A stretch of 63,801 nucleotides of DNA, counting the filler, from Hausera hauseri (Eukaryota), in the NCBI GenBank assembly GCA_046269625.1. It is 11 parts of 11 records of this genome, joined end to end, with 100 filler letters (N's around TTAATTAATTAA, not from the genome) between each part and the next. Parts side by side here need not be neighbours in the genome. Positions count along the whole stretch, not along the records: positions 46,853 to 51,194 come from JBJURY010626441.1; 10 more parts are not named here. One strand, 5' to 3'. Positions 8,999-61,100 of this stretch are shown in pieces. Below the pieces are notes generated by a model. That model saw only the letters and a program-made list of their open reading frames with translations. It was not told the DNA's origin and did not search any database. The translations under genes and the position numbers were made by a program. Positions within the stretch are counted from its first letter, which is position 1. Each line of letters opens with the position of its first letter.

Positions 8999-8999
8999 T

Positions 9000-9017
9000 T
9001 GGCGACCCTAACAGGAC
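9000..9017 (+). promoter_or_regulatory. Primer-binding site, tRNA-Arg-like
   Basis: TGGCGACCCTAACAGGAC differs at 2 of 18 positions from TGGCGACCGTGACAGGAC, the complement of the invertebrate tRNA-Arg(TCG) 3' end used by 412/mdg1-type Gypsy elements; ~300 nt upstream of gag. Confidence 0.7.
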
Positions 9018-9315: not shown

Positions 9316-11121
9316 ATGGCAGCAGATAATCCACCAGCAGCGCAGAAGCTGGACATCTTTACGTTTGATTCTCTAAACCTGCCGGCATATGACTGTGATC
9401 CGGACGGATTAAATGACTTCCTAAGGACTTATAAGTTGCACGCAGAAGGTGCTAGTCTTCCTCCTGAAGTAATGATAAAGCTATACTTAAAGAATTTAGC
9501 CGCTGATGCTTATAGTGAGCTCACAAATGAAGAAAAGAAATCTTGGTCCTCCCTAGTAGGAGCATTGAATCGGAAACTATTGCCAACGGTAACGCCGCAA
9601 CAGAAACTCATGGCCTTTCAGAATAAAGTACAACAAAAGGGTGAATCAGTAACCCAGTTTGCATTTGCATTAAAGAATCTCGCTAATAGTTATGTAAGCA
9701 CTTTGAGAATAGCTAATGTAGCTAGAGCCAAAACAGACGCGGAACGTGAAGCCGCAGAGAAAGCAACTCCGCCAGATTTAGACGTCATGATGACGACACA
9801 GTTGATTATTGGGATTTGGTCCCGAGACTTAGTGAAACAATTGATTTTGGCTATACCTGATAATTTTGAGAGGACGCTACAATTAGCCCAAGATTTAGAA
9901 ATGGCATTAGAAAGATATACCAAACAAAATGATAAATACGAAAGTAACAATGACCGTAGTAATCGCAACAGAAATGATAACCGAGATAATAGACGATTTA
10001 ATGATAATAATAGAAGCCAAGGGTTTGATAATAGGAATCAAAATGCTTATAGAAATCAAAAATATGACAATAGAAATTCTAGTAATAATCGAAACACATA
10101 CAGCTCGTATAATAAGTCAGGTTACAACCCGGACAGGAACCAAAGTGGTTATAACCAAGGTGGTTATCGATCTAATAATAGCCGATATACGGATAGTCGG
10201 AGTAACGATAATAGAGATGATGGAGATAGTAGACAAACTCCACAAAGTCAAAATAAGAATATAACCAGAGCAAAATCGCCCGTAAACGAAGATGGTCGAC
10301 AAAGGATTGGCCGTAATGGAAATTTAATTTGTTATACATGTGGCAAAGAAGGACATATTGCTAAATCATGCCCAAATCCCAGAAGCGTTGCATTTACGGA
10401 GCCGAACAAAACAAGTATGATTAAAAACAACCTAAAAGCCATATACGGCAAAGGAGGTGAGATAAGTATGATAATTGAAATGCAAGATCTACGCAGATCT
10501 GTAAGAAATTTAGGTGAAACCACTAACCCTCACGTAACAAAAGCTAGGAAAGAGTATGAAGAAAAGTTACGACTAATGGAAGTTTATCATGGATTAACAG
10601 AACCAGAAACCGAGGACGAATATGCATTAGCACCAAACAGCATCAATATGGCACGCAAAAAGCCTTTTCCACAGGGAACAGCTCAGGCTGAGAAACCAAC
10701 GACATCTCAAAACGTAGATTTAGACACGGAAGTAGTATCCTTGACACAAGACCCAGAGGAAACTACATATGAGGTCGAAAGTGAATTTATCGGGCCTTTA
10801 GTGCTCAAAATAACTAAGAATAGAGACAGAAGCCCATCACTTAAGAGAAAGTCCACGGATCGCTCTCGATCCCCCATTAAAAAGAATTTGGTGGAAAAAG
10901 AAGATTTCTCTACTATTTTAAAAGATGACTCAATCGCGGATCTTTCTGTTATGTCTAAGGAAATACCAGAAACGCTGGAAACACCAGATGTAGTCAACGT
11001 CAACTACGAAATTAACGAAATTTGCCCACTTCCCACTAGCGAGGAAGAGACACAAGATAGCGATAATTTCGACCCAAAAAATGGAAGATCCGACGATCAT
11101 GGAAGAATGCTGATGAATTGA
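9316..11121 (+). CDS. gag: Retrotransposon Gag (capsid-like domain, N/D/R-rich linker, CCHC knuckle, acidic tail)
   Basis: QQKGESVTQFAFALKNLA (major-homology-like region), CYTCGKEGHIAKSC zinc knuckle; intact 601-aa ORF. Confidence 0.9.
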   Translation: MAADNPPAAQKLDIFTFDSLNLPAYDCDPDGLNDFLRTYKLHAEGASLPPEVMIKLYLKNLAADAYSELTNEEKKSWSSLVGALNRKLLPTVTPQQKLMAFQNKVQQKGESVTQFAFALKNLANSYVSTLRIANVARAKTDAEREAAEKATPPDLDVMMTTQLIIGIWSRDLVKQLILAIPDNFERTLQLAQDLEMALERYTKQNDKYESNNDRSNRNRNDNRDNRRFNDNNRSQGFDNRNQNAYRNQKYDNRNSSNNRNTYSSYNKSGYNPDRNQSGYNQGGYRSNNSRYTDSRSNDNRDDGDSRQTPQSQNKNITRAKSPVNEDGRQRIGRNGNLICYTCGKEGHIAKSCPNPRSVAFTEPNKTSMIKNNLKAIYGKGGEISMIIEMQDLRRSVRNLGETTNPHVTKARKEYEEKLRLMEVYHGLTEPETEDEYALAPNSINMARKKPFPQGTAQAEKPTTSQNVDLDTEVVSLTQDPEETTYEVESEFIGPLVLKITKNRDRSPSLKRKSTDRSRSPIKKNLVEKEDFSTILKDDSIADLSVMSKEIPETLETPDVVNVNYEINEICPLPTSEEETQDSDNFDPKNGRSDDHGRMLMN

Positions 11122-13925
11122 GGAAAATGAGAATTAGATCTCATGATCCAGCTGTACTCAAAAACAATTTAGAAAGGCTTAAGCAAATAAGTGAACAAGT
11201 CGATATATCCGGTAAAGAGCAACAATTTGCAGAAAAATTATATTAAAGTCTAAAATTTTGGAGCGAAGGGAAGTTCGATGAGGCAATTGAAGTAAGACAA
11301 CCGGAAGAGGTGTCGCCCGAGATGTTAGTAAAATGGAAGCACGAAATAGAATCGTGGATTAAAAGTGGAGTCTAATTTTCAGAAGGATGGAGTAAAAATG
11401 AAGATAGCATTGAGGTGAAAGTAGCTAAAGCTCAAACGTTGTTAACCACACTAGAAACTAATCGAAAATTAAAAATAGTAGCCCGCAACTTAGAATATAT
11501 AGTGGATGGAATTCGATATGCTACGACTAACCACCTTAGGGAAAAACCAGTTAACAACCGAAGCGACACGGATTTAGAAATGTTGGATATAGACCCGGTA
11601 GATATACCTCCTTTAATAGAAATGATAAAAATCGCATTCTCTGGACCTAAATTGTATAAGAACTTAGAGAATCGTATCAAATCAGAAAACAAAAAGAGGT
11701 CACAAATTAATAGTTTGAAAAACCGAATTCTATTTATGGACAACGAGGAAACCAAAACTGTAATAAAAGCCTGCATCATAGAGTCCGACGAATACAAGGA
11801 CGAATTTAACTATGTCAGTCAAATAATGAGGTTTATAAAAGGACCGGATGACGAGTTAAAAGATGCGTATAAGATGCTAGATAAGGCCATATTGGCAAAA
11901 CCAGTAATCGCTAACCAACTATCAGAATGGTCTGAATTGATAACAAGACTAAGGAAATTAGTAGAAGACCGCAGAAAAGAGTTTCCAGAAAGCGAACCCA
12001 CGATAAAAAGGCAATTAGAAGAAAGTGCACGAAACCTAGATACCATACTAGCAGAGATAGATATTCGAACACGGTTCGAAGCATTGCGACGACTGAAATT
12101 TATGAAGAAGAAGCAAGAAGAAATTATATTAGAAGAAATATACAGAATGATAGAGGAAACTAACTTTACAGAAAAGCGGAATATGACTTGTGATTTTTAC
12201 TCAAGATTAAGAAATATTCGATGGGAAGGAATCCAATATTTAATAACCAAACCTGTAGACGAAATTTCAGTACAAGATATTGATACTCTAGACATATTTT
12301 CTGATCATAGAGTATTCATAGAAGATGCATTGAGATTCATACATGAACCCCGCAAATGGATGTCCGGGACGGATCAAAAATTCCATACTGAGTTGATAAA
12401 AATTAAAAATGACCAAAGCCTCACTTCCGACGAAGCTAAATTCTTAAAGAAACTACTTAATGCCATAGATCCTGATTCGAAAATCATCAACGAGATGTAC
12501 AAACTAGCTTATTTACTAGTAGAAATGGCAGAAATTAGCGATGAAGAGATAAGGCAACTACTACCTAAACTACGACAAACCGAAGAAACATGTATAAAAA
12601 CTAAACAAAGAGAAGTAAGGTTAACCGAATTAATGAATGAGTTCCAGGAATACCGGAACAAATATGCCTTTACCGAGTCAGAAATCGAGCACAAATACGA
12701 GTTTGTACAAAGATGGCAAAAGGATATAATCATCGAGTTAACAGATTATCATCAGAAAGGACTTATTCCCACCGATGAGTTTGGTGAATTATTGAAACTA
12801 ATTCGACATGCCTGTGGAAACGGCGTAGGTTTCCGTACCACACAGATGAAAGAAATACAACCGAAATTGAAAGAAATTAGAGAAAATGTACGGAGAACGA
12901 GTATAGCACCAATAGATTATGGACCGCCAGAAGTTGATAATGACCCCGAATGGGATGCGTACTTAGATGCAATAAACGTAGAAAATCCAGTAACTCCAAT
13001 ACAACTAAACGAAGTGGAACCATGCCCACAAAGCAGGAGATTCAATGTGGAGATGCTTCTGGACTCAGCGCTAGCTGAAAAGGATTTAATTGAATTAGTT
13101 AACGTAAATATTACTGAAACTAAATTAAGACAACTTATCCCGACTCTAACTAGATTATCTTGCGAAAATACAGTTTACAGTACCTTACCAAAACTTTTAA
13201 TAAAAAGTTATGCGAGAATATTAAGGGCTAAACCTGAAGTAATGATGAAAGTAAAAATATCATCCGAATGGATGGATGAGAAAGAATGTGAACTAACTAC
13301 ATATTTATATGTAAAGGACGTAAGAGAGTGGCTAATAAATAATGGTGGTACGAACGAGTTAAATTACAGATTCTACTTTAGAGGTAGAATACTGGATGAA
13401 TTAGAACAATTAATCGATGTTGGGATTATACCCGACGAGACAAATAGAATAGTGGCAATAATAACTAACGAGCAGACTAAAGAAGAAGCCACCCGTAAAG
13501 CAAAAACAGAACAGTGCGTAGGACAAATCATGGGAGTCCGAGACGCCGCCATGTATTTCGAGTACTTGCAAACCGATGAGGACAAAGAACAATATGACAC
13601 GAACTTAGTGCCATTGACTGTATCACCAATGACCATCCAAAAACAGAAACGGCCCGTACGTAGGCCCAAGAAAATCCGAGAAGATGTTGATTATAATGGA
13701 GAATTAATCAGAGAATTGAGGCAGATGTCAATTCCTACTTTTAGCACACATAATGAAAAACTAAGCGAATTGATGAGGAATCTGATACGAATAGTAAACT
13801 CTTCGAGCCTTCGAAGATATATATTAGACTATAAAGAAAAGGCGATATTTAACGCAGATAGGACAATGAGAAGTGCACGGTTCAAGTTATCAAAAAGCAA
13901 CCTGACAGGCGAAGCAGTAGTTTAG
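11073..13925 (+). CDS. Large unknown charged/helical ORF in the -1 frame of gag, containing a ubiquitin-like domain (~13242-13463); not Pol
   Basis: The frame of ORF 11415-13925 extends back to 11073 with only two TAA (11244, 11373). No D(T/S)G, YxDD, RNase H or integrase motif seen. Ubl-like segment: MKVKISSEWMDEKECELTTYLYVKDVREWLINNGGTNELNYRFYFRGRILDELEQLIDVGIIPDETNRIVAI. Confidence 0.7.
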
Positions 13926-13931
13926 AAAATC

Positions 13932-14491
13932 ATGGTGGAAAATTCAATAGAAGAATTGAGGAAGGTATTGCTCTATTTAGCAATCAAGACAAATCCCAGC
14001 CGAGAAAATGAATTTAATCGGGCTATTAGCTTGGCACGAAAAGCAGCAAGGAAATTACCCTGTGAGGTAAATTGGATTAAAATATTTGATAAAGAAGAAG
14101 ATAAGAGAGCCAGTGGTAGTATACTAGAAGACGCGTTACGGAATCGGACGGCGACAGACAATAATAACCGGAAAAACGAATCCAACTGGTTAATCAGCCT
14201 ACTTACGATAATGATGCTGATGAAACAGATAGGTGCCGTCACTGTCTACGATTGCGATAAATTTAAGCTCGGACAAAAATACTCATTAATGAATCTAGAA
14301 GCGTGCGAAGACGCCAGACCCCATAAATTAGAAACAAAGGAAAAAAGTTATATCCTCTACCAACAACAAGAATTAATATCCTTGGACGGAATGGAGTGCA
14401 TGCTTAAGCGGTCTCGTAGCATTTTTCATTGTGGATTAATGTATGGACATTCTTCAATAATCAAACCAACGACCCCTCTGATTCCAATGAA
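13932..14491 (+). CDS. env: Chuvirus-like (class III fusion) envelope glycoprotein N-terminus, truncated by contig end
   Basis: Signal-peptide-like WLISLLTIMMLMKQIGA, then VYDC....YSL.NLEAC...ILYQQ...EC.LKRSRSIFHCG.YGHSS, matching the YDC...SL...C...Q...C......CG..H pattern of chuvirus glycoproteins; same frame as the upstream ORF, separated by one TAG. Confidence 0.75.
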
Positions 14492-37437: not shown

Positions 37438-37631
37438 TTAAGTTGTAATATGTAATACAGTTGATATGTTTATATCTGAGTAAAATAAATAAGTTACTGT
37501 ATATCAATTTATTATATAATTGTATTTAATGTTAACATTTACTTTTATTTGTTTTAATTTAGAAATGTAATCAATATCTAATGTATAGCGTCACTCGCAT
37601 ACATGAGAAGTCATAACAGTACCATAAACAG

Positions 37632-38033
37632 ATGGCGAAATATTACAGTGTTGGAATGGACACATATTTATGTCCGAAGTGTAATATTTCAGCCCAATGT
37701 CCGTATCCCGATTTTTATGAGATGAGCAAGCATCATCTCGGACCGTTTACAAGTACAGTGTACAACGTTGATGGTTGTCATAGTGCAATGGAACAATACT
37801 ACGGCGCCACAAGGGTGCACGGTAAACGGGCCTATGTATGTCCCGATTGTTCTATAGTCGATGAAATGAACTGTGAACAATTTTATAATGAGCACAAGGA
37901 CCACTTGAACCAGTTTCAGAGGTCCAAAAAAGAAATATTAATGGAGGCAGCAAAAAGCATTATTCATTCAGCAAGTAAGAAACGTCAAGCATCAACAAGT
38001 CTTGATGAATACCTGCAAAGCAGCAAAACATAG
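37632..38033 (+). CDS. Cys/His-rich (Zn-finger-like) ORF upstream of pPolB
   Basis: YLCPKC and YVCPDC...HKDH motifs. Confidence 0.5.
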   Translation: MAKYYSVGMDTYLCPKCNISAQCPYPDFYEMSKHHLGPFTSTVYNVDGCHSAMEQYYGATRVHGKRAYVCPDCSIVDEMNCEQFYNEHKDHLNQFQRSKKEILMEAAKSIIHSASKKRQASTSLDEYLQSSKT

Positions 38034-38111
38034 CATCAGCAGCAGCAGCAGGAATCGCCCATTACTGTCAAGTACGATCTAAACAGATCGTACGTAGACA
38101 TAAAAGTAAAC

Positions 38112-41100
38112 ATGTTGGCGAAATTAGCAACTCAACTGAGGTACGTACCCGCTCATGTGCTCAACCGGTTAAAAATCGAAGTGGAGAAATTCAAACACCA
38201 CAATTGCAAAGTGAAATATTATGCACTTGCAGAATTTGAGAATCTGCATGGTGACAGGAAACAATGGTACCTGTCACATCGTGCAGATCCATGTTCCAAA
38301 TATTTCATTGCCGACATAGGCGAAAAAGTGGACAAAAAAATTGCAAACTACACCGAAAAGGGCAGTGGTTGGCGAATAATAAAAATTGTCACTCTCGGTT
38401 TTACTATAACAAAGTCGAGTGATATAATTTACCTGCCTGAATGTTCATTCATACGACATCTGAAGCTCTAAAGCACTCTTATGCGGTAGTGAATGTAAAA
38501 AACACGGACGATGATTACTGTTTTATTTACAGTATTCTGGTGGTATTAAAATATGACGAAGTGGACAGACATAGTGCATATCGTACAAGTCTGTATCGGC
38601 AGTATTTTTCCGAATTGCAATTCGACGAAAACTGGATGCAGAAGAAACTAAAAACCATTCTAACATTTGAACGGCGTAATTCGACGTTTTCAATCAACGT
38701 GTTACTGTACATTACAATAGTTGAAATACCTGCAGACAAGGAAATTTACAAGAATCCACATGTGGATATAATCTATCATAGTCGGAACCCGTATGGACGC
38801 ACAGTAAATTTGTTATTGTTGAAGCAGGCAGAAAATTTTCATTACATGGCCGAAACAAATTTGGACCGACTGTTGAACATGGATCACCATCAGTTTGTCC
38901 AAAACAAATACGTTGTAAAGGGTGTCTTACATGTCTCTATGGCTTCAGATCAGAAACCACGTGGGAAAAACATGTGACGCTGGGCAGACAGAATGCATCA
39001 GAAACAACAATGTACGTCATGCCAATCAAAAAGGAGCTGCGATTTAGTGACTGGTATAAAACGGGCAGTCCAGCATATGTGATATTTGCTGATATTGAGG
39101 CAATTCTATCACGGCACGAAGTACACGATCGAAAACATGTTCCAGTTGCCGTCGGAATATTGGTTGACCCAATAAAAGCTGCAAGTCAACCGCAGTATTA
39201 CATGTTTCACGGCTGGAACTGTGTGTATGTGATTTCCTGCATCATTTGGAAACAATATCTGAATCGTAAATCGCACCGTGGTATCGCAATAACAGTGCAA
39301 AACCCCTGATTTGGACAGATGAAGATGAACGCCTGACATTTGCAGTCACAGAGGAATGTTACCTGTGCCACAAAATATTACCGTTTGATGCACAAGAACG
39401 AATAGTACCGGATTACGACCATTTTACCGGTTGATACTTGGAGCAGCATGAAACACATGCAATTTAGCGAGGTGTGTGCGGCCATTTCTACCGATGATCT
39501 TTCATAATTTTCGAGGTTATGATTGTCACCATATACTGAAATGGGCCATCAACGGATTTCCGCACTGGGAACTGTCCATAATCCGAACAACAATGGAGAA
39601 GTGTCCGTTTCTGTCAGCATGCATAAACCGGTTCCAGGTACGCTTCCTTGATTCGTTGCAATTTCTCAATGAATCACTGGGGAAGCTGGTAAATGCCTTG
39701 CCGGATATGCCGATAACCTCAACACAGTTCCCCACATATAATGCACGTTGCAAAGGCATATTTCCATATGACTTTGCAACATCATATGAGTGACTCAAGA
39801 CAGCATAGAAATTACAGCCGCGATGGACAGGTATCGCAAAGGATGAATACCGGAAAGCACAGAAATGTTGGATAGAACTCTGCTGTAGAAATATGCTGGA
39901 TTACATGCTACAGTGTCTTAAACTGGACGTATACTTATTAGCCGATGTGTTCCAAGCGTTTCGAGCAAAAGTGTTGGTTGAAGATATGCTGAAGCCACTC
40001 AACTTTTATTCCATACCGGGAGTGAGTTAGGCGTCAGGTCTAATGTCACTGGATCGAGACATTGAGCTTCTGCAAGACCCGGAAATGTACCGGCTGTTTG
40101 ATGTTGGTATTCTCGGTGGCATGACATTTGTCAACAAACATCAGGTCCGTGCAACCGATACTATATCACTACCGTATATTGATATTAATAACCTGTACGG
40201 CTGGGCGCTTTCGCAACCCTTGCCGTAGGGTTTATTCGAATGGGTTGTCGACAGACAATATGTGGACGATATAATGGTCAACCTACCATGAGCAGACATG
40301 GCAGACTCAGTCGGATACCTGATGGAGGTCGATTTGGTGTACCTGATGAGCTGCATGACGTTTTGGACGATTTCCCGGTCGCACCACTTATCCAATGTCC
40401 GCCAAGCTCAAAAGTGAAGAAACTTCTCATGACGCATGAACCGAAGCTAAATTACGTGGTCCAAGGCGTACATAAATGGAAATTCGGAGAAACGAGCCAC
40501 AGCTTGTACAAAGTTCGAAAAGGACTACAAGGAGCTGGAAAACAATTTCCCGTACGGAAAAACAGTGGAGAATCTGAAAAAGCGGCTCAATGTACACCTA
40601 TGCAATAGCGAAAAGCGGTTAGTCACGTACAAGAGTAAGCCGCAGTTTCGGCAGTCAATGCACATTGCCGATGGTTTGGTTGAGATGCTGTTAAACCGGA
40701 AAGAAGTCGTTATTGACCGACCAAGTTACATCGGACAAGTGGTATTGGACGTGAGCAAGTTGCGGATGTATGAGCTACAGTATCGCGATTTGGTACATTA
40801 CCATCAAATGTTTGATTTCTGTGATATTAGTATTGTTGCAGGTGACACAGACAGCTTTTTCTTGCGGCTGAAAAAAGTCAGTCGCAAAAAAGTCAATGCA
40901 GTCAGATGGATTACTGGACACGTCCAACTATCCACCGGATCATCCGTTGTATGGCAGTGAGATCGCCAACAAAATCGGCTGCTTTAAAGATAAAAGTGAA
41001 GGTCGTGTCCAATATCGGAATGGATATTCCTACGCTCAAAGTGCTACAGTCTTCTGACGGACTGTGGACTGAAAATGCGGAAAAAAGGAGTCCAGCTGAG

Positions 41101-41293
41101 ACAGACGGAAATCAACCACGGTGATCATCACCGTATCTATGAAGAAGGACAAACAAAGGCTGTTGTGTTACAAATGATCATCCGATCGATTGAGCACCAG
41201 CTGTATACGGTGATCAATACAAAAGTCGCTTTATCATGCAATGATAAACGTAAGTGGGTGGGGCGAAATAAGAGTTGGAAGTACGGACAATGA
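38112..41293 (+). pseudogene. polB: Protein-primed family B DNA polymerase (pPolB)
   Basis: GSGW, VVNVKNTDD.YCF, IFADIE (Exo I), FHNFRGYD (Exo II), FLDSLQF, KGIFPYD, LKLDVYLLADVF, YIDINNLYGWALSQPLP, YGKTVEN, GDTDSFF, LDTSNYP, KGV; many frameshifts and stops. Confidence 0.95.
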
Positions 41294-41491
41294 CGTTTGG
41301 AATAAAACACGCATGAATTCGATGTAGACGATACAGACAGATCAAATTACTGCGACAATTCATTGTGATTTGTTTGTTTTGTATAAATAATGTATATTAT
41401 TCGTTGTTTTTGCCTTTTGTTTTATTATAATTTAACGTATCTATTTAACTTAATGTGACAATAAACAATATAAAAAAGTCAATAAAATTTA

Positions 41492-41991
41492 TTAATCATC
41501 ATAAGCTAAAATCAAAAACAAAGTAAATCCAATCAGGGTAAACTTTCCCAGCTTCCATATTGGTGATTTAATGCCGTGCAGATCCTTGTATCCTTTCAAC
41601 TTCAATGTTAGATGACCTTTAGCTCCTTCTGGTAGCAAAACGGCCGCTGCTGCTACTGCTGTTTCTCCCCCATGTGAACTGACAATTTTCGCCATATTTC
41701 CTTTCAGAAAAATCGACGATGTGCCTCAGATATCGTTAGTCAACACCAAGTCACTGTCAACTTTTCTAATTGTATCTTCCATTGTATCCAAATCATCGTC
41801 TCTCATTTTTTTCACCAATAGGCCATATTTCACCAGTTTATTTTGACCGTTTGCATCAATGGCAATTGAATAGCGTTGCGCAGATAATATAAGTTGTATC
41901 CATTATACAACCAGAAATTTCTATGCGAATATTCGCTGCACCTTGGCTTTTTTGACAGACGGTCACTTGCGGAATTATTTTTCAAATTCAT
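41492..41991 (-). pseudogene. Unknown Polinton ORF, possibly an ssDNA-binding protein
   Basis: Broken ORF ending ...GHLTLKLKGYK..GIKSPIWKLGKF; SSB/OB-fold resemblance is only an impression. Confidence 0.25.
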
Positions 41992-42150
41992 TGTTTAAAG
42001 AAGACAAGCGTGAAGTGAAATTGCATCTCTATTTATATCAAAGGTTTGTTATCATTGTAAACAATAGACATTTATTTTTTGACTATTGTCTCATATCACA
42101 ATGATACAAATTACCTCCACGTCATTGAAGCCTATGTTCCGTTATTAAAC

Positions 42151-42629
42151 TCAATCGTAATAAACGTGTACAATTTCCATTACAGCACATTTACATTCTG
42201 GGCATTGGTGGGTTGTTACTTGGGTAGTGGAACACATTTGACAAACAACGAGATGGCCGCTCATTAAGAATACCGTATCCACTTGTCTTTGTTTACATAG
42301 TACACACATAAACTGACAGTCTCGTACTTTGTCCATTGTTTTCTCTTTCAAGTTCGTTAATTCACCGCGTACCTTTTCAAAAGTACTAAAGTAATTTTAT
42401 CATAAAATCGGTGAATGTACATTTGATTTAACACAATAATTAGATTTTCTATAGAGCTGCAACCTGTTGCTGTCATCAATGCTACTGACGTTAAATCCTC
42501 TTTAAATCCAAAATCACCTGCTGCTCTCGCAACCAGATCACTATCAAGTACTTTCCACCATCGTTCCAAGTCTGAAATTGATAATCCATCAAAATTTTCC
42601 AATTGCGTCAATTGATTAACTATTTCCAT
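42151..42629 (-). pseudogene. IAP-type UBA-like + C3HC4 RING protein lacking BIR domains
   Basis: RING CVLC...VDTVFL.SGHLVVC..C......CPEC...V; upstream LVARAAGDFGFKEDL....CSSIENLI resembles the cIAP/XIAP UBA; the two parts are separated by a stop and frameshift. Confidence 0.7.
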
Positions 42630-42732
42630 GATATTATTTCCTACCTATATTCATAGTTTTTGAATTATTCAACTGACTAACACGGCGGACCTTATATACG
42701 GAAAGAAAAAAGAAACAGAGAAATACATTTAT

Positions 42733-43220
42733 TTATTTCGATAAAATATAGTCGATACAAAGGCGTAAACATTTTATGTAAGCACATTGCCGTCCGCGAT
42801 CACTATACGGACATCGGATACTGTCAGGTACCATCGCCAGCGAATTATTCGATGTTGTTAAATACATCGTCATTCGCAACTCCGAAATTAGTGAATGGAG
42901 TTGTGTAAACTTTTGCAGGCCAATTTGATCTTTAATGTAAAATATGATATTTTCAATGTCAAAACGATCACAAATCTCTTCCATAATACATGGCACACAA
43001 CGTTGAATTGCCTTCATACCAATGAAGTCCACGACGATGTCGAAAGAAATCCATTTGTAATTTTCGCTTTTTCCGTCAGGTCTTTCCATACAATACCGGG
43101 CTTGAATATGTACACAAGTGGTTAGAAAATGTTACCGAAGTCCATAATGCATAATTCCTTTACTATGTACCGGACATTATCATCTAGGAAAGCTTCAATA
43201 TCTATAAACCCTGACGCCAT
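42733..43220 (-). pseudogene. DEDD-like nuclease commonly found in Polintons
   Basis: MASGFIDIEAF...YIVKELCI...YIFKP..W..L....K.TN...IFYIK...C..CA.IKC; internal TAA and frameshift. Confidence 0.65.
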
Positions 43221-43303
43221 TACTTAGCTGGTACAAAATCATTTTTTATTTTTAACACAAGCAAAACAACTAACTATTATTATTATTATTATCATAACAA
43301 TCA

Positions 43304-43790
43304 TTAAACATAGGTGGTTTTGTCCATATCACCAATGCCTAATTCTTTGCGTTCATTTCGTGTCGATTCATTGACGCAAAATAATTTCCATTGTTCAGGT
43401 GACATTACACTGAATTTTGCCTCTTCACAGCGAAGAAAAACAATTTGTGTGACTGCACGTCCTTTTGAAAAAGCACACGTTGCCGGATAGGTTTTCCACC
43501 AACACTTTAATTTTAGCACAAAAGTCTGAATCAATGACACTGCCGCCCAACAACCGTCAGTCCAAGCTTTGCCACTCCGCTTTTCGATAACAGTTGACCG
43601 TAGTAACCCGGTGGAATCGCCAATCGAATCCCAGTCGTTATACATTTGATTGTGCTGTCCGAAACTGTCGTATTGACATTGGAAAACATCGTTGCCTGCA
43701 CTATTTGCTGTAACACGTCTCGGTACAAAGGTATTTTCGTCTGTTAAGATAATCTTTACATCATTTATTATCCTTATTTTTATGCCATTC
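43304..43790 (-). pseudogene. dut: Trimeric dUTPase
   Basis: PRRVTANSAG.D (motif I), TTGIRLAIPPGYYGQLLSKSG.A..GLTV (II), D.DF..KIKV (III), GRAVTQIVF (IV), R.E.GIG (V); frameshifted. Confidence 0.88.
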
Positions 43791-44047
43791 CTAAAATAAC
43801 ACGTATATTTATACTTGTTAATTGGGTTAATGAAAAAAGAACAGTAAAACAATATATATTGGTAATTAAAATGCGCTTCAGCCCCACGCTAAATCGGGCT
43901 TTTGAAACCGGCTTTTTCCTGGTATCCTTGCAATTCAATATTCAACCGACACTTTAATCGACCACCATCATCATCAAGTACATGAGATATTTCGCGAGCG
44001 ATAAAATCAAATAATTTCCTTTTCTGCACCGGCAAAACAACACATTG

Positions 44048-45064
44048 CTATTGCACGGTCGTTTCGTTCAACTTTAAATCCACATTTAATTGATGTATGG
44101 CATCAGAAAGTTTATCCAAATTTTCACCCGAAAGCCGTTTAACACGATAGCGGTACTTGGGTACACATAGAGATACGGGATCATTCAATGAGATCAGTAC
44201 GGGCGTTTGCAGAAAATACATTTCATACTTGAGAAGAATTCGTTTCGGTAAAAATGTCTGTGTTTGACACGATAATTTTGATTTTTGTATACGTATTCCA
44301 ATCATTGCATTTTGCCTTTTTAACGTCGGTTTTGATGATTTCTGAGCAAGTTCCTTTTTCGTTTCCAGACAATCGCCCTGCAAACAATTGCCATTAGAAG
44401 GTTTTTCTAATTGTTGGACAAGTTCTGGTTTCGCTTCCAGCAGTTTGATATTAGAATTATCCTTTTTGTAGCCAAACAACCACGACCAATCTGAACTTTC
44501 ATCATTGGCATCAATGAGTAGAATCGTTTTGTCGACGTCTTCCATGGCAGTAATGTCTGAATAAGCATGGGAATGGTATTTATAGTTTGTTGTTGTGCAG
44601 AGTACATTATTTGGATTCACTAAAACATGTACGTAGTTTTTTATTTGATTAATAATCAATTCATAGTCCACTATCCGAATACTGAGTACAGCAATTTTTT
44701 CGCTGCTAACCACATTGACACAAAGTGGGCGAAACGATGTCAGTGTCAATGCAGGAAACAGTTCGGGTTCATATGTACATTCAGTGGCCATTGCTAATTT
44801 GAACAGATTGATTGTTTGGTAGTCTAACTGAGTCGTTACCGTTATTGATTGAATTTGGTCAATAACAATTCCGAATGGTAATAGTTTACCAGCTGTTATT
44901 GGTTTGCGACAACCCATAATACGACACTTTCTCGATTAAAATATAATTCACGTGAAATCCGGTGGACATTTGAGGACATACTGCCTCGGCTTCCATTGAT
45001 TAAAAGGTAATGTGTTAATGTCACACTCGGTAACATGTCCGCGATAGTTGATATTAGCTAACAT
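44048..45064 (-). pseudogene. TATA-binding-protein-like gene (two TBP repeats, ~44630-45064) in frame with an unknown C-terminal extension
   Basis: MLANINYRG...IIF*SRKCRIMGC (repeat 1; two stops near 44940-44950) and IQSITVTTQL...INLFKLA....YEPELFPALTL...PLCVNVVSSEKIAVL (repeat 2, cf. TBP YEPELFPGL). Confidence 0.8.
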
Positions 45065-45160
45065 TATGGAAACAGTGTTTATACTATAGCTATTTATATG
45101 CGCGTAACACGATTATAAACAGATCATGTGAGGAAAGGTTGTATTATTATGATTATTTAG

Positions 45161-45770
45161 ATGAAACTGCAGAATGATGCCATTTTCCAGATTGTAGGCC
45201 CCAGTGGAAGTGGCAAAACACACTTTGTGTGTAAACTATTGCCGAACTACCAGAACATGTTCCATTCACCGCGGTACAGTCACATATACTGGCATCAAGG
45301 TGCTGGTGATGATGGTTAGTCCGGTTTGACACAACGGGAATTTTGCAAACTAAAATCCATAACGGTAATTGATGAGTTTGATAAAAACTGGTCAAAGAGA
45401 TTACGCAATGGTGACGTTATTTTCATCGATGATTTATTTCAAGAGACAACGAAACAATCGGACTTCAACAACCTGTTCACAAAGATGGCACGACACCGTG
45501 GTGTAAGGGTTATTTTCATTACGCAAAACATGTTCCATCAGGGCGGATAGCATGGAACAAAAAATCTAAAAGTACACTATTTGATGTTGCTCAAAAATCC
45601 CCGTGATCAGACTAATATTGATTGTTTCACGACAAGCATTTCCTCACAACTGAGCCCGTTTGATATATGCATATCATGATGCTACGACCGAGCCACACGA
45701 ATACTTGTTCATCGACTTTACAAAACAGTGTCCAGATGACATGCGTGTACAAACAGACACTTTCAATTAG
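45161..45770 (+). pseudogene. FtsK/A32-like packaging ATPase
   Basis: IVGPSGSGKT (Walker A), VIFIDDL (Walker B), LFTKMARHRG, FITQNMF, KNPRD, YLFIDF. Confidence 0.92.
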
Positions 45771-45994
45771 AAAGGTGTGTGTCTATAAACAAATTCAAAA
45801 ATCGACAACATGATAGTGATAAAATGAAGAATTTCCGAACAACAATTGATGAACGTAAACCTACTAAGCGGGTGTCCGGCAAGAATCGTGTATCAAAACG
45901 AACCGCTGCAGTCAAGCGATTAATCAATTCTGTGCTTCAAACAACAGCAGCTGCAACTAGACGCAAACTACCGTCACAGTGGCAACGGTTGTAA

Positions 45995-46350
45995 ACAACT
46001 ACGTCTCACCAGCATCAAAACGTCCACAAAAAAGCGATTCAAACGAGGTCAGCTGTACTTTATTGCTTTGCTCAAGGCACCTACGAGACATAAGCGAAAC
46101 ACGCTTCGATCATTTCTACAATTTGTGGTAGACGATTTAATGGAAATTTTGTACAATATCGTTGTGGGTCACGTTGATATTGGTAGCGGGAACCGTAATT
46201 TACTAAAATATCGAAAACGACTCATTGGCCTTGCCATCGCTCGTAGTAAACGACTGAAACAAGAGGTCATGTATCACCAAGACGAGGATTCCTTGGTGCA
46301 ATTATACGGTTGTCACGTCATTACTGGATGGACTCGTTGGTTATGCAGCA
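45995..46350 (+). pseudogene. Basic Polinton core (pVII-like) protein
   Basis: LMEILYNIVVGHVDI....LLKYRKRL..LA....KRLKQE..YHQ, matching the E...N...G.V..L..YK..L..LA pattern seen next to Maverick ATPases. Confidence 0.6.
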
Positions 46351-46519
46351 TAGTATAAACAATGATGGTAAATATATGATGATTCAGCGATATGGGTGCA
46401 TCGTTTTCATCATTTTGCACCACTTTACCGAATCTTTCATTTACGTTTCATTCTAATTTCTGTAATGTTAACAAAACGACATCATCGTCGACAACGATGG
46501 GCGGCGTGTGGTTCGATCC

Positions 46520-46752
46520 GTGTCATCCCGTCGGGTATACTGGCGTAAACTGTTAAAGACTGTCAAACAGACTCGGCAACAGACCGAAAGTTGGCTCGGG
46601 AAACAGTTGGCATAAAGCCTAAACAAACCGATAAGAAGGCGGTTTCCAACTCGTGCATACCGTGTTGCCGGTGTCAATAACGTATGGCAAATGGATCTGA
46701 TGGAAATGATTCCGTACGCCAGCATCAACGATGGATATCGGTACGTGCTGAC
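46520..46752 (+). CDS. Polinton integrase N-terminus (truncated by contig end)
   Basis: ESWLGKQLAYSLNKPIRRRFPTRAYRVAGVNNVWQMDLMEMIPYASINDGYRYVL. Confidence 0.88.
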
Positions 46753-46852: not shown

Positions 46853-49800
46853 CTCATAAAACATCTGCAGCCTAGAATAAAAGAGCAAATACAAAAGGAT
46901 TTAAAGAAAATAAATGAAGGAAAAATTCCCAAAGAATTAAAATTGTCAAAACTGATAAATACGTATACTGAAAAGAATTGTTTAAATAGGCTAAATGAAG
47001 ATGACAAGGATAAGCTTATTAAAGAAATTTATAAGATTCGAGGAAAAGATCTGGTTACCTCTCAGAAGGAATCAAGATATTAAATAGATTACGAAAGACA
47101 AGAAAAATTAAACAGGCGAATTGATGACATAATTGAAGGAGTTATTGGTCGAAAATTCGAACCACCTCCTATCATAATTAGTAGTGATAGTAGTGGAACA
47201 CAAACCCTTTGTGGAAAAGATGAAACCAAGCTCATCAAAGAAAATGAAAAAGTCGGTATTAAGAAATTCATCGAAGAAGGCCAGAATCTACTTATGACTT
47301 ATAATAATGTATCTACCAAAAATGAGTATTTAGACAGATTATGTCTCCTACTAAAAACCAAGAAAATGAAGAGAGAATATAAAGAACAGTTAGAAGAAAT
47401 TCGAGCTGAAATGGAACTATTACTAGACCGATCATATGTATCCGAAATAAAAATTGAATTGAAGAAAATCAGTAATATCCTGGATCAAAATTTAAGTGAA
47501 AAACAGAAGATTTTCTGGACTGAACAAAAGGAAAATTTGGAAATGGCAATGCAATCACCAATTACTTTAGAAAAGAGAGAAGTAATAAATGAAATACGCG
47601 TCAAATCAAGTCAAGTAATGATAACTTATTTATTTAAGATTCTGAAAAAAAATCATTATGTAAAAGATTACTTCAAAATGAAGTCATAAAATAATCTGAG
47701 CATCTCGCAGGAAGAGTTAACACCTTTATCAATAAGTTGAAAGTTCTAGGCATAAAAAGTACCGAAGAAAATGAAAAGGAATTAACAGGGATTCTCAATG
47801 AAAGTAACGATTTGCACCAGTGTTTAATTGATGATATTGATCTTGATGAAGAACCACAACAATTATTAGAAATATTAATCTCAATTTGTAGACATCATAT
47901 AGATGATAAAATAACTGATGATGGATATCCTCCTATGATACCTCCTTTAACCATTGATGAACTTACTGACGGAATAAAAACGACTAAAGAATTCGCCAAA
48001 CGGTTAGAAGGAATAAAAAGATCGCCAGATTTCGATAAGTTTACGGAAAAAGCAAGAAAAGCAGAAGAAGATTTTCAACTTGATTTCTCAGAAGTGATTA
48101 ATAAAGAAAATACTGTAATTGCAAGTGACGAAGAAAGTAGTTTGAAAAAACGTATGGAAAAATTAAAACCACCTAGATACCAGGAATTATTAACAAAAGA
48201 AGAGAGAAGAAAGCAAAAAAACAAATAAAATATCCAGATATGATTGACAGCGAGATAAATAAAACTACTGAGAATATACAGCCAATAAAAAAACAGAAAA
48301 AGCCTGCTACGAAGAGAATAAGACTGTACAAACCAGAAAAGCCGGAAAAGAAATATTACGAATGCCAGCAAAGATGATTTTAAGGACACAACTGAGTACG
48401 AGACACAAGACAGTTTTGGACAGGATATGAACATTAATGATTTTCTTGAATATGACTTAGATACAATCCATCTTGATAGATTTAGAGACGAAGAAATAAA
48501 TGAAAATGAGAGAATAAAATCAAGACCAACTCTGATTGAAAGAATGGCCGCTCCACAAGAATTTCCAGAAGATCTAGATGACTTGCTAATGTCTTACCTC
48601 AATAAAAAGAATAATATTTATGAAATTGAAGAAACAGCAGAAGAATTAGCTAAAAAACCAGCTGATAAATGGAGGTATAATAATACGCCTCGAACCTTAC
48701 TAAAATTATTAGGAAAATACTATTTAAATGAAAAGAAATTTATGAATCAAAAAATAACAGTGCGACCTTGGATTGACGATAGTTTCTTCCCTAATCTAGA
48801 AATGAGTATTGATAGTCGAGTTGTTGGTCTTGAACAGGCAATCAAATCTCAAACTCAGAAACAAATGAAACATCTTAGAATTATATATTGCGATAGAATT
48901 TTGGATCCAGAAGAACCAACAACTGAACTAACTCCAGAAGAAGATAAACGGAAAATTATTAAAGTCAAAAATATAGCACAAGAAGAAACCATTATGGGAA
49001 TAAAAGATCAACAAGGGTAGTTGAAACATCTCCATGAGACACTAATCGAAAATTCGTCACAGACATAGCAGCAGATGCTTACAATGAATTGACAGATGAA
49101 GGAAAAGATAAATGGAATAACGTACAGACCGCCTTTATTGATAAGTTCTATCCTACCTTATCCCCACACCAACAATTGATTAAGCTACAAAACAGATATA
49201 AGCAATATGATGAATCTGTTACACAATATCCCTATGCTTTACGACAAATTGTCTCTCAATACGTTAAAGCTGTCCGACTAGATACAATAAAAAGAAAAAA
49301 TAAATTTTATGAAAAAGAATTAAATACCGATATATTATTGCTCACTCAATTTTTGAATGGATTAAGTCCTGAATTGAAATATGAAGTAGAGGTAAAATAT
49401 CCTACTGATTTTGTAGATGCTTTAAAATCGGCCCAAATGATAGAATCGTTTGCTCCGCCAAAGCGACAGAAAATCGCTAACCGATTTTTTGAAAATGATC
49501 AGAGAAATTTTGACTCACAGAAATGATAATCGCAGAAATGATCAAAGAAACCGAAGAGATAATGAAATTGATTTTGACCGAGATAGCTATAATCGAGGAT
49601 ATAATAAATCAGATTCAAGAAACTTTACGGACAATCGAAATCAGATGCCAATAAAGCCAGAAAATGTTACTCAATACGAAAAAAGTAATGCTCCTAGATT
49701 TTAGCACAGAGTTTTATTTAGTCCAGAAACAAAATATCGAAGAGATGGTAGACAGGATTTGAATAAAACCGGTCGAACGCCTACATGTAATCAATGTAAC

Positions 49801-51194
49801 AAAACTGGACATTATGGCAATTCACGTTAAACTCCAGCTCACGAGTTGCCTGGACCAAATGAGAAGAAAAGAAGTGCCATAATGAACAAAGTTAAAACTT
49901 ACAATACTCCAGAAGAATTTTTAAAACGAATTTCTGAGTTAACTCCAGATAAAAGAAATATTACAGCTAACGTTCTCAGAAAAATGCATGCTGATGTTGA
50001 TCGAATTCTTCGAAAATATAATATTGATACAAGTTATAGTTTGCCTCAGTGCCAAGGCATTTTTGATGATTTAAATAAAAATGAACCTGTAGCGGAACCA
50101 GCTCAGGCAAAACGTATTACTGAATCAGTTATCATTGAAGCTCGAACCGAAGCTAAGAATAGACTTTTACTTGGTGAAGAACATTCTGAAGTAGATGAAT
50201 TTATGCTTGAATGTTTCCCGGTTGATCCTCAAGTCGCTGCATGTGAACGAGCTCGAAAAGAATCCGATAAAGAAAAGCCGACTTTACCTGATCAAAAAGA
50301 CAAATTTGCTCGATATAAAATACCAAAAAGAAAACCTGAAGAAGTTTCTAAATCACCAATCACAAAATGAGATGTTGAATATGAACAAATTCACAGAAGT
50401 TATAAAATGCCAAATGACGCAGTTCCATCTACATCCAAATCAGAAGCGCACCCACAAAGTCCAGAAGTTCAGATTATTGAAAGAGATACTATTTATGAAG
50501 TTGCCGATAAAGAGCTCATAAAACATTTTCAGCCTAGAATAAAAGAGCAAATACAAAAGGATTTAAAGAAAATAAATGAAGGAAAAATTCCAAAGAATTA
50601 AAATCATCTAAGCTGATAAATACTTATACTGAAAAGAATTGTTCAAGTAGACTAAATGAAGATGACACAGATAAACTTATTAAAGAAATTTATAAGGTTC
50701 GAGAAGAAGATCTGGTTACCTCTCAGAAGGAATCAAGATATTTAATGGATTATAAAAAGCAAGAAAAATTAAAGAAGCAAATTGATGACATAATTGAAGG
50801 AGTTCTTGGTCGAAAATTCGAACCACCTCCGATTATAATCAGTAGTGATAGTAGTGGAAGACAAACTCCTTGTGGAAGAGATGAAATCAAACCCATCAAA
50901 GAAAATGACGAAGTCAATATTATAAAATTCATTGAAGAAGGCCAGAATCTACTTATGACTGATAGTAATGTATCTACCAAAAACGACTACTTAGACAGAT
51001 TATGTCTCCTACTACTAAAAAACAAGAAAATAAAAAGAGAATCTAAGGAACAGTTAGAAAAAAGTCGAGCTGACATGGAACTATTACTAGACCGATCATA
51101 TGTATCCGAAACAAAAATTGAATTGAAGAAAATCAATAATATTCTGGATCAAAATTTAAGTGAAAAAGAAAAGTTATTTTGGACTGATCAAAAG
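46853..51194 (+). mobile_element. Decayed relative of the contig-2 element (Gag, degenerate knuckle, unknown ORF, Ubl), tandemly duplicated with ~3662-bp period
   Basis: 46853-47530 is a diverged copy of 50515-51194; Gag at 49064-49830 and Ubl at ~48742-48966. Confidence 0.8.
49064..49830 (+). pseudogene. gag: Gag fragment homologous to 9316-11121
   Basis: AADAYNELTDEGKDKW...PTLSPHQQL..LQN...ESVTQY.YAL vs AADAYSELTNEEKKSW...PTVTPQQKL..FQN...ESVTQFAFAL; DGRQ precedes the knuckle in both; CNQCNKTGHYGNSR has its last Cys replaced by Arg. Confidence 0.85.
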
Positions 51195-58509: not shown

Positions 58510-60340
58510 ATGCTGTTTTTTAAACACAAGGTCAATTTCCTAGGACATGTTAGTAGCTCCTCCGGACATTCACCTCAGCCGGACCGCATCACTCAGCTCA
58601 AAAACATACAACTGCCACGTACGTTAACAGAGATGCGTTCTTTCCTCGGAACCTTGCACTTTATTCATAAGTACGTTCCGCACTGTTCCACTTTAATCGC
58701 TCCATTTGCATTACTAAACTCTGGCAAGAAGAAACAGCCTACTCAATGGACCGCAAATTTAGTCAATGCTTTAGATGGTCTCAAAGACAATTTGAAAACT
58801 GTGGATATCCTGCTTATCCATACTCCCATGCAGAACTTTTCTTAACCACCGACGCATCCACAAAAGCTGCAGATGCTGTCCTACATCAAGTTAAAAAAGG
58901 ATCCCATAAACCATTGGAATTCTTTTCTTGAAAATTCACAGCACAAGAGCAGAGATATTTTACCTTTGACCGAGAGTTGCTTGCAATGGTTCTTGCCGTA
59001 AAACGCTTCAAACATTTCCTAACTGCACGAACTTTTACCATACAAACTGACCACAAGCCCTTGCTTTAAATTCTCACCATGAAATAGCCTTCTCCACGTA
59101 AGGGGAGGCAAATGTCGTATTTGTCAACATTTAATTTTGTAAGTAAACACCTAAACGGGGTCGGCAATTTAGTAGCTGCCTTTTTGTCCCGATCGGTCAG
59201 CTCGATTGATTTTACACCAATCTTTCCTCAATCGAAACTTCAGCAAAACCAGCCACCTCTTGACATGCTTAAATCTTTTAAATTTTGCAAAACCATCGAC
59301 GGTGCGGCCTTTGACACCTCCAAACCTAATAATCCTAAAGTCATCCTTTCTGAATCGCTTCAAAAAGAAGCATTCAACAGCATCCATTCGTTGCATCATC
59401 CCGGGGCCAAGGCCATTTTTCGACTCTTACAACGCCAAGTAGTATGGCCGTCGATGCGCTCTGACGTGCAGGCATGGGTTAGGCAGTGTGTGGCATGCCA
59501 AAAATACAAAGTTACTAAGCACTTAAAGCTACCACTATATCATTTTCCCTGCACGTCTCGTTTTGAATCTGTTCACATTGACCTTGTATGCCCACTACCC
59601 TTAGACAACGGCCATCAGTTCATACTCACAATAATGGACCGTTCCTCGCGATGGCCAGAGGCTGTCCCGCTTCGGAGCACTAACACAGAAACAATTGCAG
59701 ACGTTTTCATCCGCACTTGGATCAGCAGGTTTGAATCACCTCGCTACATCATTTAGGACCAAAGCCCACAGTTCGAATCCAACTTGTTTAAAGCTATTGT
59801 CAATCGATTGAAAATTAACCAAATTTACAGGTCATCATATTATCCTCAATCGAATGGCCTTCTCGAACGCTTTCACCAAACGATGAAAACGTTTCTCAAA
59901 ATCCTTGCTGAATTAAATCGCAGTTGGACTACACTCCTTCCGTACGTTCTGCTTGGCTGGTGGAACACACCATCTACTTCGACAGGCTGCTCTCATGCAG
60001 AAGCATTATTTGGTACTTCTATCAGACCATTATTCGAGCTGGCTGAGCTGGACAATATTCTTACAGACGAAACCAAACAAGCGGCCCAAAGACACTTCGT
60101 TGAGATCAGCAAAGACTCATTTTGCAGACTGTTACACGGAAATAAACCCAACATACCTGATGATTTATATACTGCTAACTTCGTATGGCTAAAAAATCAG
60201 ACGCCGTGTGATTTTCGACCCCAGTATGTTGGCCTCTACAAAGTAATTCGTTTACACTCTCACAATATCATCATTTTCAAGGACGACAAAGAAGTAACAG
60301 TCCACATCAACAATGCTAAGCCGGATTTTTTCATTGACGA
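58510..60340 (+). mobile_element. pol: Ty3/Gypsy pol remnant (RT C-terminus, RNase H, integrase)
   Basis: VNFLGH, MRSFLG, LTTDAS, TFDRELLA, TDHKPL, H..HHPG...C..CQ, VHIDLV.PLP, RWPEA, PQSNGLLERFH; several stops and frameshifts. Confidence 0.95.
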
Positions 60341-61100
60341 TACGTCTCCCATCGAAACCACTTCTCCACCAACATCTTTACACGACGCGCAGCAATCAAC
60401 AATTCACCTTCCATCTTTGCTCAATTTTCTAACTCACTTTCCCCTAAGTTTTCTCCCCAGACTTCTACTTCAATTTTTTTAGTTCAGCCTATTTTTTCCC
60501 ACCCGATTTTGCACCTTCAAGCCTTTCACACCCCCTTCATCCCCTGGTGACAACTTGCTTTCTCCTCTTACAAGACCTCCTCCGCCAAACACCATTTCGA
60601 TTTCACCAATATTTCCATCTTTTTGCTCTCTTCCGTTTTGTCCCTCTTCGCAGTCTTTTCTCTCCCTCTCGCTTTCTTTCTCCTTCCACACCTTCCTCAT
60701 TTTCGGCGATCGCTCCCTCCCTCTCTCCTTATACATCGTCTTTTACTCCTTTCGTCACCGTTTCGCAAATTTCTTCTCTTTTTACTCCTATCCATATCTC
60801 TCTTTCTCTCTCTACTACTACTTTTGTTTCATCCTCTATTTCTACTCTATCACCTAATACAATTTCAATTTCTACGCAACTTTTCGTCTCTCCTCCTTTA
60901 TCCGCCACTACACCTCTTTTTAGTCCTTTGTCTTCCAACACTCCCTTGAACACCTTCAACCGTCTGCCTCCAAAAACCTCTCTTCCTCCTTCACCTTCTA
61001 TTTCTCTTTATTCTGAACCATCTTCGCACGACACAACACTCACAAAACAATCCCACAATTTTTCCCCAAATTCAAACTCTGCAAGCAAACACACAGAATA
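60340..61100 (+). repeat. C/T-rich low-complexity tail of the Gypsy element
   Basis: Pyrimidine-rich tract; followed by a purine run GCAGGGAAAAA (~61138), a possible PPT. Confidence 0.6.

Follow-up and report, generated by a model that had tools for sequence, protein, structure and literature searches.

Features of contig 9 and contig 2

The window is a stretch of 63,801 nucleotides made of 11 contigs from the Hausera hauseri assembly GCA_046269625.1, joined by spacers. The feature under study lies in contig 9 (JBJURY010626441.1; positions 46853-51194), and the sequence most often compared with it lies in contig 2 (Table 1). The two ends of contig 9, 46853-47530 and 50515-51194, were repeats of each other (90% identity) at a period of about 3662 bp, and the contig spanned 1.19 repeat units. 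Within 48742..49830 the literal order was the ubiquitin-like (Ubl) domain and then Gag. Because the contig ends repeat each other, the wrapped order was Gag, knuckle, charged region X and Ubl, which is the order that the initial annotation had described across the repeat unit and the order seen in contig 2. The distance from Gag to Ubl was 3489 nt in contig 9 (wrapped round) and 3887 nt in contig 2.

Table 1. Coordinates of features in contigs 2 and 9, counted along the window
Contig	Feature	Position	Strand	Basis
2	Presumed primer-binding-site-like motif, some 300 bp upstream of the start of Gag	9000..9007	+	
2	Gag, with CCHC knuckle at 10330	9316..11121	+	zf-CCHC E 1.7e-6; Retrotrans_gag E 0.0026 (under cut-off)
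2	Complete Ubl, inside 849-aa ORF 11376-13925	13239..13478	+	Model, Foldseek, VIA, Atlas, profile
2	Hydrophobic signal-like stretch and start of gB/chuvirus-type fusion glycoprotein (Env)	14190..14491	+	Pfam, hydropathy
9	Charged region X, end of first unit	46853..48645	+	Translation; interrupted by stops and frameshifts
9	Pre-Ubl conserved segment, predicted helical	48646..48741	+	Leave-one-out profile and four-sequence alignment
9	Ubl, N-terminal three quarters; C-terminal part missing	48742..48916	+	Pfam ubiquitin, profile tests
9	Post-Ubl linker up to joint	48917..49053	+	Aligns with contig-2 post-Ubl linker
9	Rearrangement joint, post-Ubl linker fused into Gag interior	49053..49054	.	Loose ends of related copies
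9	Gag capsid core without N-terminus	49053..49523	+	Retrotrans_gag E 0.00099 (under cut-off); contig-2 Gag match
9	Degenerate CCHC zinc knuckle	49786..49827	+	zf-CCHC E 0.054
9	Region X, second unit	49831..51194	+	Translation; 50515-51194 is the second copy of 46853-47530

Lysine, glutamate, aspartate and arginine together made up 36-39% of contig-9 region X, and the two ORFs from this region tested against Pfam gave no match below E 0.38. The sequence between Gag and Ubl had been described as not alignable by eye between the two contigs, and region X of contig 2 did not align with that of contig 9. Between the first and second copies of region X in contig 9, dN/dS was 0.39 (224 codons, p 0.0008). 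Of 13 differences listed for the Ubl, 8 were synonymous, with p 0.001-0.03 according to the expectation chosen. Both results were counted as evidence that the protein may formerly have been under selection.

The contig-2 Env lies 852 nt past the Ubl, and no Pol motif precedes it. In Pfam it matched positions 6-95 of the 653-position Monjiviricetes_fusion profile (E 7.5e-9, 34.5 bits vs a cut-off of 27). Only the first 85 codons of the Env ectodomain lie within contig 2.

Gag and the ubiquitin-like domain in four sequences

The claimed homology of the two Gag proteins was borne out: contig-9 Gag (about 49050-49523) and contig-2 Gag were identical at 46 of 139 positions (33%, E 3e-24, z 33.8), a score reached by 0 of 300 shuffles. 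About 60 N-terminal Gag residues of contig 2 were missing from contig 9. A Gag profile of two database proteins, P0003 (JGI/IMG, 997 aa) and P0004 (ENA, 949 aa), matched contig-9 Gag (iE 1.1e-5), and contig-2 Gag matched the same two proteins at iE 1.6e-10. Word-indexed homologue searches with the Gag alignment, the contig-9 Ubl ORF and the contig-2 849-aa ORF returned no relatives; a search of this kind is weak evidence for absence.

The peptide that had been read as ubiquitin-like was located at 48742 onward on the + strand. It matched Pfam ubiquitin at E 0.0037 (17.5 bits vs a cut-off of 25.4), and all seven of the named rows in the Atlas were ubiquitin-family (scores 0.86-0.88). The initial annotation had staked this assignment on Ubl profile tests, and in these the segment behaved as a Ubl: a profile built without contig 9 recovered it (0 of 2000 shuffles), and the four-sequence Ubl profile matched the ubiquilin-2 UBL in the PDB at E 6.7e-5. 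All of the best 60 of 114 PDB matches were either named as ubiquitin, SUMO, ISG15 or UBL-bearing proteins or were unnamed proteins aligned over the same stretch. Pairwise likeness between the contig-9 and contig-2 Ubl was marginal (191 of 5000 shuffles as good; 67 of 5000 with flanks), so the homology of the domain between contigs rests on profiles. Contig 2 was needed in the profile, as the two-protein profile of P0003 and P0004 met the contig-9 Ubl at noise level (iE 0.12); the same profile matched the contig-2 Ubl at iE 1.8e-11. Single-sequence PDB searches gave unrelated weak matches only, and the contig-2 Ubl alone had no Pfam ubiquitin match.

At 48916-48919 the contig-9 Ubl was shorter than that of contig 2 by about 18 codons, and this gap takes in the last strand. 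Its single-sequence fold had a pLDDT of 36, and the pre-Ubl helix was seen only in a low-confidence model. The contig-2 Ubl model (pLDDT 60) had the order beta-beta-alpha-beta-beta. Foldseek probabilities for this model were 0.75-0.98 but with E 0.09-0.31 and about 15-25% identity to ubiquitin-fold proteins, the best VIA match had Z 5.5 (rmsd 3.5, 72 aligned), and the first named Atlas cluster carried PF11976 (98% of members). Profiles and models show a real ubiquitin-like (beta-grasp) domain. In contig 2, P0003 and P0004 the Ubl ended without a C-terminal di-glycine, and contig 9 is without that part of the domain. Since the terminal di-glycine is absent and the best structural relatives are the ubiquilin and BAG6 UBLs, the Ubl is likely to be an integral, non-conjugated interaction domain. 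Its putative role, to which we give about an even chance, would be to link the polyprotein's accessory part with the proteasome or ubiquitin machinery, controlling turnover or modulating the host.

A Ubl-plus-flank profile, without Gag, found three hits among 1.84 billion proteins. The top hit, P0002, was an InlB-repeat bacterial protein, a false positive that was excluded from all profiles. The other two, P0003 and P0004, each contained Gag, CCHC, helical segment and Ubl within one ORF, with a region X much shorter than in contigs 2 and 9; the contig encoding P0004 is 14,848 bp long. The pre-Ubl helical segment was common to all four sequences. As a Gag-free Ubl profile retrieved Gag-CCHC-helical-Ubl proteins, the architecture is conserved, which together with the Ubl profile results supports the earlier view of Gag-X-Ubl as the conserved architecture of a diversified family. 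The P0003 C-terminus matched Bcl-2 at E 0.019 (profile positions 35-100 of 100), the third of five matches and well under cut-off; the contig-2 post-Ubl region (13479-14264) gave no Bcl-2 match in Pfam or the PDB and none to the P0003 C-terminus. A profile search found no third family member elsewhere in the window, and locus scans of viral, metagenome and genome contigs gave no matches.

The joint in contig 9 and the missing Pol

Contig 9 holds a decayed and rearranged piece from the interior of a multi-copy retroelement. The 49053/49054 joint is a rearrangement, and the contig-9 copy carries two lesions. Loose ends of related copies fell before 49052/49053 in nine records of run X1 and five of run X2, and behind 49054 in one record of X2. 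The two records that supplied all of the left-hand depth in X2 (48.6 + 14.5 = 63.1) stopped at the joint, and further loose ends occurred at 48916, inside the Ubl. The contig-2 and contig-9 copies were both interrupted by stops and frameshifts. The 3.66-kb unit probably formed by fusion of one copy's post-Ubl linker to the interior of Gag in a second copy that differed by 10%, perhaps by deletion between tandem copies, unequal recombination or a template switch.

It is unlikely, at perhaps one chance in several, that the joint arose instead when assembly merged two diverged copies, with no rearrangement in the genome; the reading of the family would then be unchanged. The repeat is high-copy, the contig is short and none of the 16 pieces listed of 721 held a bridging record. 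However, of the words sampled from the window X1 and X2 share 39% at most and are therefore unlikely to be the sample from which the window comes, and a private lesion in the genome would give the same picture.

No PR, RT or IN motifs were found in contig 2 or contig 9, nor PR/RT motifs in the P0003 and P0004 ORFs. The earlier statement that the family shows no Pol was true of contigs 2 and 9 but is without weight, since contig 9 comes from the interior of a decayed copy, which makes its missing Pol uninformative, and contig 2 ends within Env. An integrase in contig 11 lies on a separate contig and cannot be linked to the Gag-X-Ubl element. Pol is likely to be missing only because the contigs end too early, and would be located downstream of Env.

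A truly Pol-less family, that is, an old and diversified enveloped LTR lineage (LTR-Gag-X-Ubl-Env) with a Ubl accessory protein and a gB-type fusogen that spreads by borrowing reverse transcriptase and integrase from helpers, appears improbable. All four sequences (two contigs and two database ORFs) are without a Pol motif, and defective Env-bearing copies are common in Anakin (250 of 263 in Table 1 of PMC7642597). Against this, none of the four reaches the post-Env site of a Burro-type Pol, and their visible order equals the 5' half of Burro in the available text of PMC6431247. If real, such a lineage would be helper-dependent and invisible to Pol-anchored surveys such as that described in the available part of PMC13524379.

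Amplification of the 3.66-kb unit itself, whether as a macrosatellite or as a circle, with continuous reading of a Ubl-Gag fusion, is very improbable. All 30 bins were covered in both runs, only 1-4% of contigs continue unlike the stretch and contig 9 holds more than one unit, but related copies diverge on both sides of the joint, where the left-hand depth of X2 also ends, and the unit contains many stops and frameshifts.

For contig 9 as a decayed fragment, the proposed parent would have the order LTR-Gag-CCHC-X-Ubl-(Bcl-2-like)-Env-PR-RT-RH-IN, and its product would be mostly one polyprotein cleaved by its own protease. In cytopathic pestiviruses, ubiquitin insertions act as host deubiquitinase cleavage signals. 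That the Ubl is such a signal, replacing the viral protease, is the least probable reading: pestivirus polyprotein fragments were 3 of the 50 fold matches listed and no protease motif was found before Env, but the Ubl ends without di-glycine in contig 2, P0003 and P0004, is distant from ubiquitin-fold proteins in sequence (the Foldseek identities above), and Burro, in the text available, has its own protease after Env (PMC6431247).

Comparison with known retroelements

Literature searches for Ubl with gag and envelope in LTR retrotransposons gave nothing related by title, and none was found for non-autonomous gag and env LTR retrotransposons without pol; for SUMO-like and BCL-2 domains in gypsy polyproteins, PMC6431247 alone was found. 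Troyka was rejected, being without envelope and having a different zinc finger in the accessible part of PMC12440569.

Anakin elements, in the sections of PMC7642597 available, are BEL/Pao elements with a chuvirus glycoprotein, and BEL/Pao envelopes lie downstream of the polyprotein. The likeness to the present sequences lies in the same glycoprotein class and the many defective copies; the difference is BEL/Pao Gag and Pol vs Retrotrans_gag with a single CCHC knuckle here. Membership in BEL/Pao was rejected, with no BEL/Pao-type Gag among the Pfam matches and no Pol motif before the contig-2 Env.

GAG-ENV-POL errantiviruses with gB-type Env are described from Nematoda, Bryozoa and Platyhelminthes (PMC13524379, available part). 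In the HSV/gB-type errantiviruses, e.g., Smed_errantivirus_1-6, a gB-type Env directly follows the Gag-side ORF, as in contig 2. By eye, about one third of 42 residues at the start of the contig-2 Env were as in Smed_errantivirus_2 and about one quarter as in one insect row. Those elements are intact and were chosen for Pol, whereas the copies here are broken; the word ubiquitin is absent from the main text of that paper.

In the available text of PMC6431247, Burro/GYPSM1 are giant gypsy elements of dugesiid planarians with high copy number and decayed fragments in Dugesia japonica. The planarian Burro polyprotein has the order Gag-CCHC-Ubi/SUMO-like-BCL2-Env-PR-RT, and its Ubi2/SUMO-like domain is PF11976. 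The Gag-X-Ubl(-Env) layout is therefore already published, and the novelty implied by the initial annotation does not hold. Likened through this published domain order, contig 9 is quite probably a decayed, rearranged fragment of a Burro-like Ty3/gypsy element with Env between Gag and Pol. With the present work, a Gag-accessory-Ubl-Env design that has been little studied gains four divergent sequences. The helical-plus-Ubl module is conserved although the sequence around it cannot be aligned, and it offers a small domain for asking what the ubiquitin-related cargo of Burro does. A host other than a flatworm would widen the range of the design.

As far as the available description of Burro allows comparison, there were several differences. 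One knuckle is present here vs two or three in Burro; the Gag-to-Ubl distance of 3.5-3.9 kb is more compact; MATH, BIR and ankyrin had no Pfam match here, unlike in Burro, and BCL2 was not detected in contig 2. In contig 9 the Ubl follows Gag by wrap-round only, and there is no Env within the contig. The weak Bcl-2-like C-terminus of P0003 sits where Burro has BCL2, and the Burro Env, like that of contig 2, is related to mononegavirus fusion glycoproteins. Common to Burro and contig 2 are Retrotrans_gag, CCHC, a long accessory region, a Ubi2/SUMO-like domain and then Env without a preceding Pol, the contig-2 order corresponding to the 5' half of the Burro polyprotein.

Gag and Ubl in the contig 9 repeat unit

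The window consists of 11 short contigs with spacers between them. All coding of contig 9 (46853-51194) lies on the plus strand, which is A-rich (AT skew 0.27, the same as the coding part of contig 2), and its translation is interrupted by stops and frameshifts. The contig ends are 90% identical repeats with a period of ~3662 bp. As it stands, the contig reads in the order: charged region X, ubiquitin-like domain (Ubl), Gag core, degenerate knuckle, and X again. Wrapping the unit round gives Gag, knuckle, X, Ubl, the order of contig 2 and the one the initial annotation had proposed; Gag-to-Ubl distances are 3489 nt in contig 9 and 3887 nt in contig 2. The proposed homology of the two Gags held (33%, E 3e-24), and no alignment could be obtained between the two X regions, as had been said of the intervening sequence.

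Contig 2 (7535-14491), the comparison element, contained, in order, a putative PBS-like motif, Gag with CCHC, and an 849-aa ORF that includes the Ubl. A hydrophobic stretch follows, then a Monjiviricetes-type fusion glycoprotein (E 7.5e-9) that is cut by the contig end, leaving profile positions 6-95 of 653.

The window contigs also carry animal-type repeats and genes, including integrase, Polinton-type polymerase, LRR and CIAPIN1 pieces. The contig 6 ORFs had no Pfam match under E 0.1 and none to Gag or Ubl profiles; they are possibly the middle part of a different large retroelement polyprotein. The CIAPIN1 piece may be a retrocopy.

Features of contig 9 and other contents of the window
Feature	Position	Strand	Remarks
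tRNA-Met gene	7260-7331		close to contig 1 end
Helical segment before Ubl, contig 2	~13080-13238		predicted
Leucine-rich-repeat ORFs	17591-18875		LRR_8 E 2.4e-15 over 17591-18229
CIAPIN1/anamorsin C-terminal piece	22305-22724		uninterrupted, E 1.6e-23
Contig 6 long charged ORFs	28672-32639	minus	decayed, A-rich strand; two hydrophobic stretches near 29650-29480
Polinton/Maverick-type pieces	36880-46752, 62787-63675
TBP-like ORF	44051-44935	minus	E 9.7e-5; in Polinton/Maverick-type stretch
Helical segment before Ubl, contig 9	48646-48741	plus	predicted
Ubl-like segment, contig 9	48742	plus
Gag core, contig 9	49050-49523	plus
Degenerate knuckle, contig 9	49786	plus
Gypsy-type integrase	59088-60482		Integrase_H2C2 E 8.4e-17, stop-interrupted; contig without link to Gag-Ubl family
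DNA_pol_B_2	63280-63672		E 3e-7; tblastx match to contig 8

Identity of the ubiquitin-like domain

Taken alone, the contig 9 Ubl segment matched Pfam ubiquitin at E 0.0037, under the cut-off, and the contig 2 segment gave no Pfam ubiquitin match. Their pairwise likeness was marginal (191 and 67 of 5000 shuffles). A two-sequence profile placed three UBL domains at the head of its 5 PDB matches (E 0.12-0.91). Against 1.84 billion proteins it returned three matches: the database ORFs P0003 (JGI/IMG, 997 aa) and P0004 (ENA, 949 aa), and an InlB-repeat protein discarded as a false positive. Both ORFs start with Gag and a CCHC knuckle, and the query profile contained no Gag. These two independent relatives are new here and bear out Gag-X-Ubl as a conserved design.

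A P0003/P0004 profile found the contig 2 module at iE 1.8e-11 and the contig 9 module only at iE 0.12. With contig 2 added, the contig 9 module reached iE 1e-4 (score 18.6; maximum of 2000 shuffles 8.2), and the four-sequence profile matched the ubiquilin-2 UBL at E 6.7e-5. The contig 9 segment passed the profile tests for a ubiquitin-like domain, and these searches settle that the Ubl is real. The contig 2 Ubl model (pLDDT 60) has its elements in beta-grasp order; the Foldseek matches listed are ubiquitin-fold entries, with weak E-values, and the best VIA Z was 5.5. In Atlas both segments point to the ubiquitin family too, with scores that class there as leads.

The predicted helical segment directly before the Ubl is conserved in contig 2, contig 9, P0003 and P0004 and fits no assigned family. 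A nameless 79-aa Atlas cluster (54 members) ranks first for the contig 9 query; its length and size suggest that it is also the cluster ranked second for contig 2.

The helical-plus-Ubl module is conserved, whereas X is not. By analogy with ubiquilin and BAG6, its closest structural matches, the module would likely have been an adaptor linking to the proteasome or the ubiquitin machinery. Without di-glycine, the Ubl is unlikely to serve as a cleavage signal for deubiquitinases: the terminal di-glycine is absent from all three complete copies (contig 2, P0003, P0004), which argues for an integral UBL rather than a modifier.

Fragment boundaries and the missing Pol

Diverged copies are abundant in two public runs, X1 and X2 (5,959 and 662 contigs matched, all 30 bins covered). 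Among the matches listed in the breakpoint survey (12 of 65 loose-end rows and 16 of 721 pieces), related copies depart from the window at two positions. One lies within the Ubl, at 48916 (11 records of X1 and 1 of X2); here contig 9 has a ~18-codon gap relative to contig 2, last strand included. The other is 49052-49054, with departures from either side (9 and 5 records before, 1 behind), and in X2 both records making up all depth left of this joint end there. About 60 N-terminal Gag residues of contig 2 are missing from contig 9 at the same joint. Given these two-sided departures and the missing Gag N-terminus, the place where Ubl meets Gag is a rearrangement joint. The contig 9 unit begins within Gag and runs to 158 nt beyond the Ubl core motif; as an internal slice it cannot hold Env or Pol, whatever its parent contained.

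In overlapping copies X has a dN/dS of 0.39 (224 codons, p 0.0008), and Ubl differences are synonymous in 8 of the 13 listed. By this codon pattern, ancestors of the contig 9 copy were under protein selection; the copy itself is dead.

The initial annotation had also claimed that this family member shows no Pol. The motif scan found no PR, RT or IN motifs in contig 2 or contig 9, so the observation stands, but the absence is likely an effect of fragment boundaries, and a family without Pol of its own is improbable. The parent element would have encoded a Gag-accessory-Env-Pol polyprotein, cut by its own protease.

Comparison with Burro and errantiviruses

A Pol-anchored search described in PMC13524379 turned up elements of Nematoda, Bryozoa and Platyhelminthes in which a gB-type Env sits between Gag and Pol. 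By eye, the contig 2 Env start is somewhat nearer to the Schmidtea entries in the supplement of that survey than to the one insect row compared, a lead only.

Burro elements, giant Ty3/gypsy elements of planarians, encode in a single ORF of ~4,900-5,100 aa, according to PMC6431247: Gag, CCHC knuckles, accessory domains, a Ubi2/SUMO-like motif (PF11976), BCL2, Env, and then PR-RT-RH-IN. The same paper mentions decayed Burro fragments in a third planarian. No Bcl-2 signal was found between Ubl and Env of contig 2; the equivalent position of P0003 has a weak Bcl-2 match (E 0.019, third of 5). Membership of the contig 2/9 element among the Burro-like elements is likely rather than proven. No defining Burro feature failed among those examined, and all features visible in contigs 2 and 9 agree with the 5' half of the Burro design as laid out in PMC6431247.
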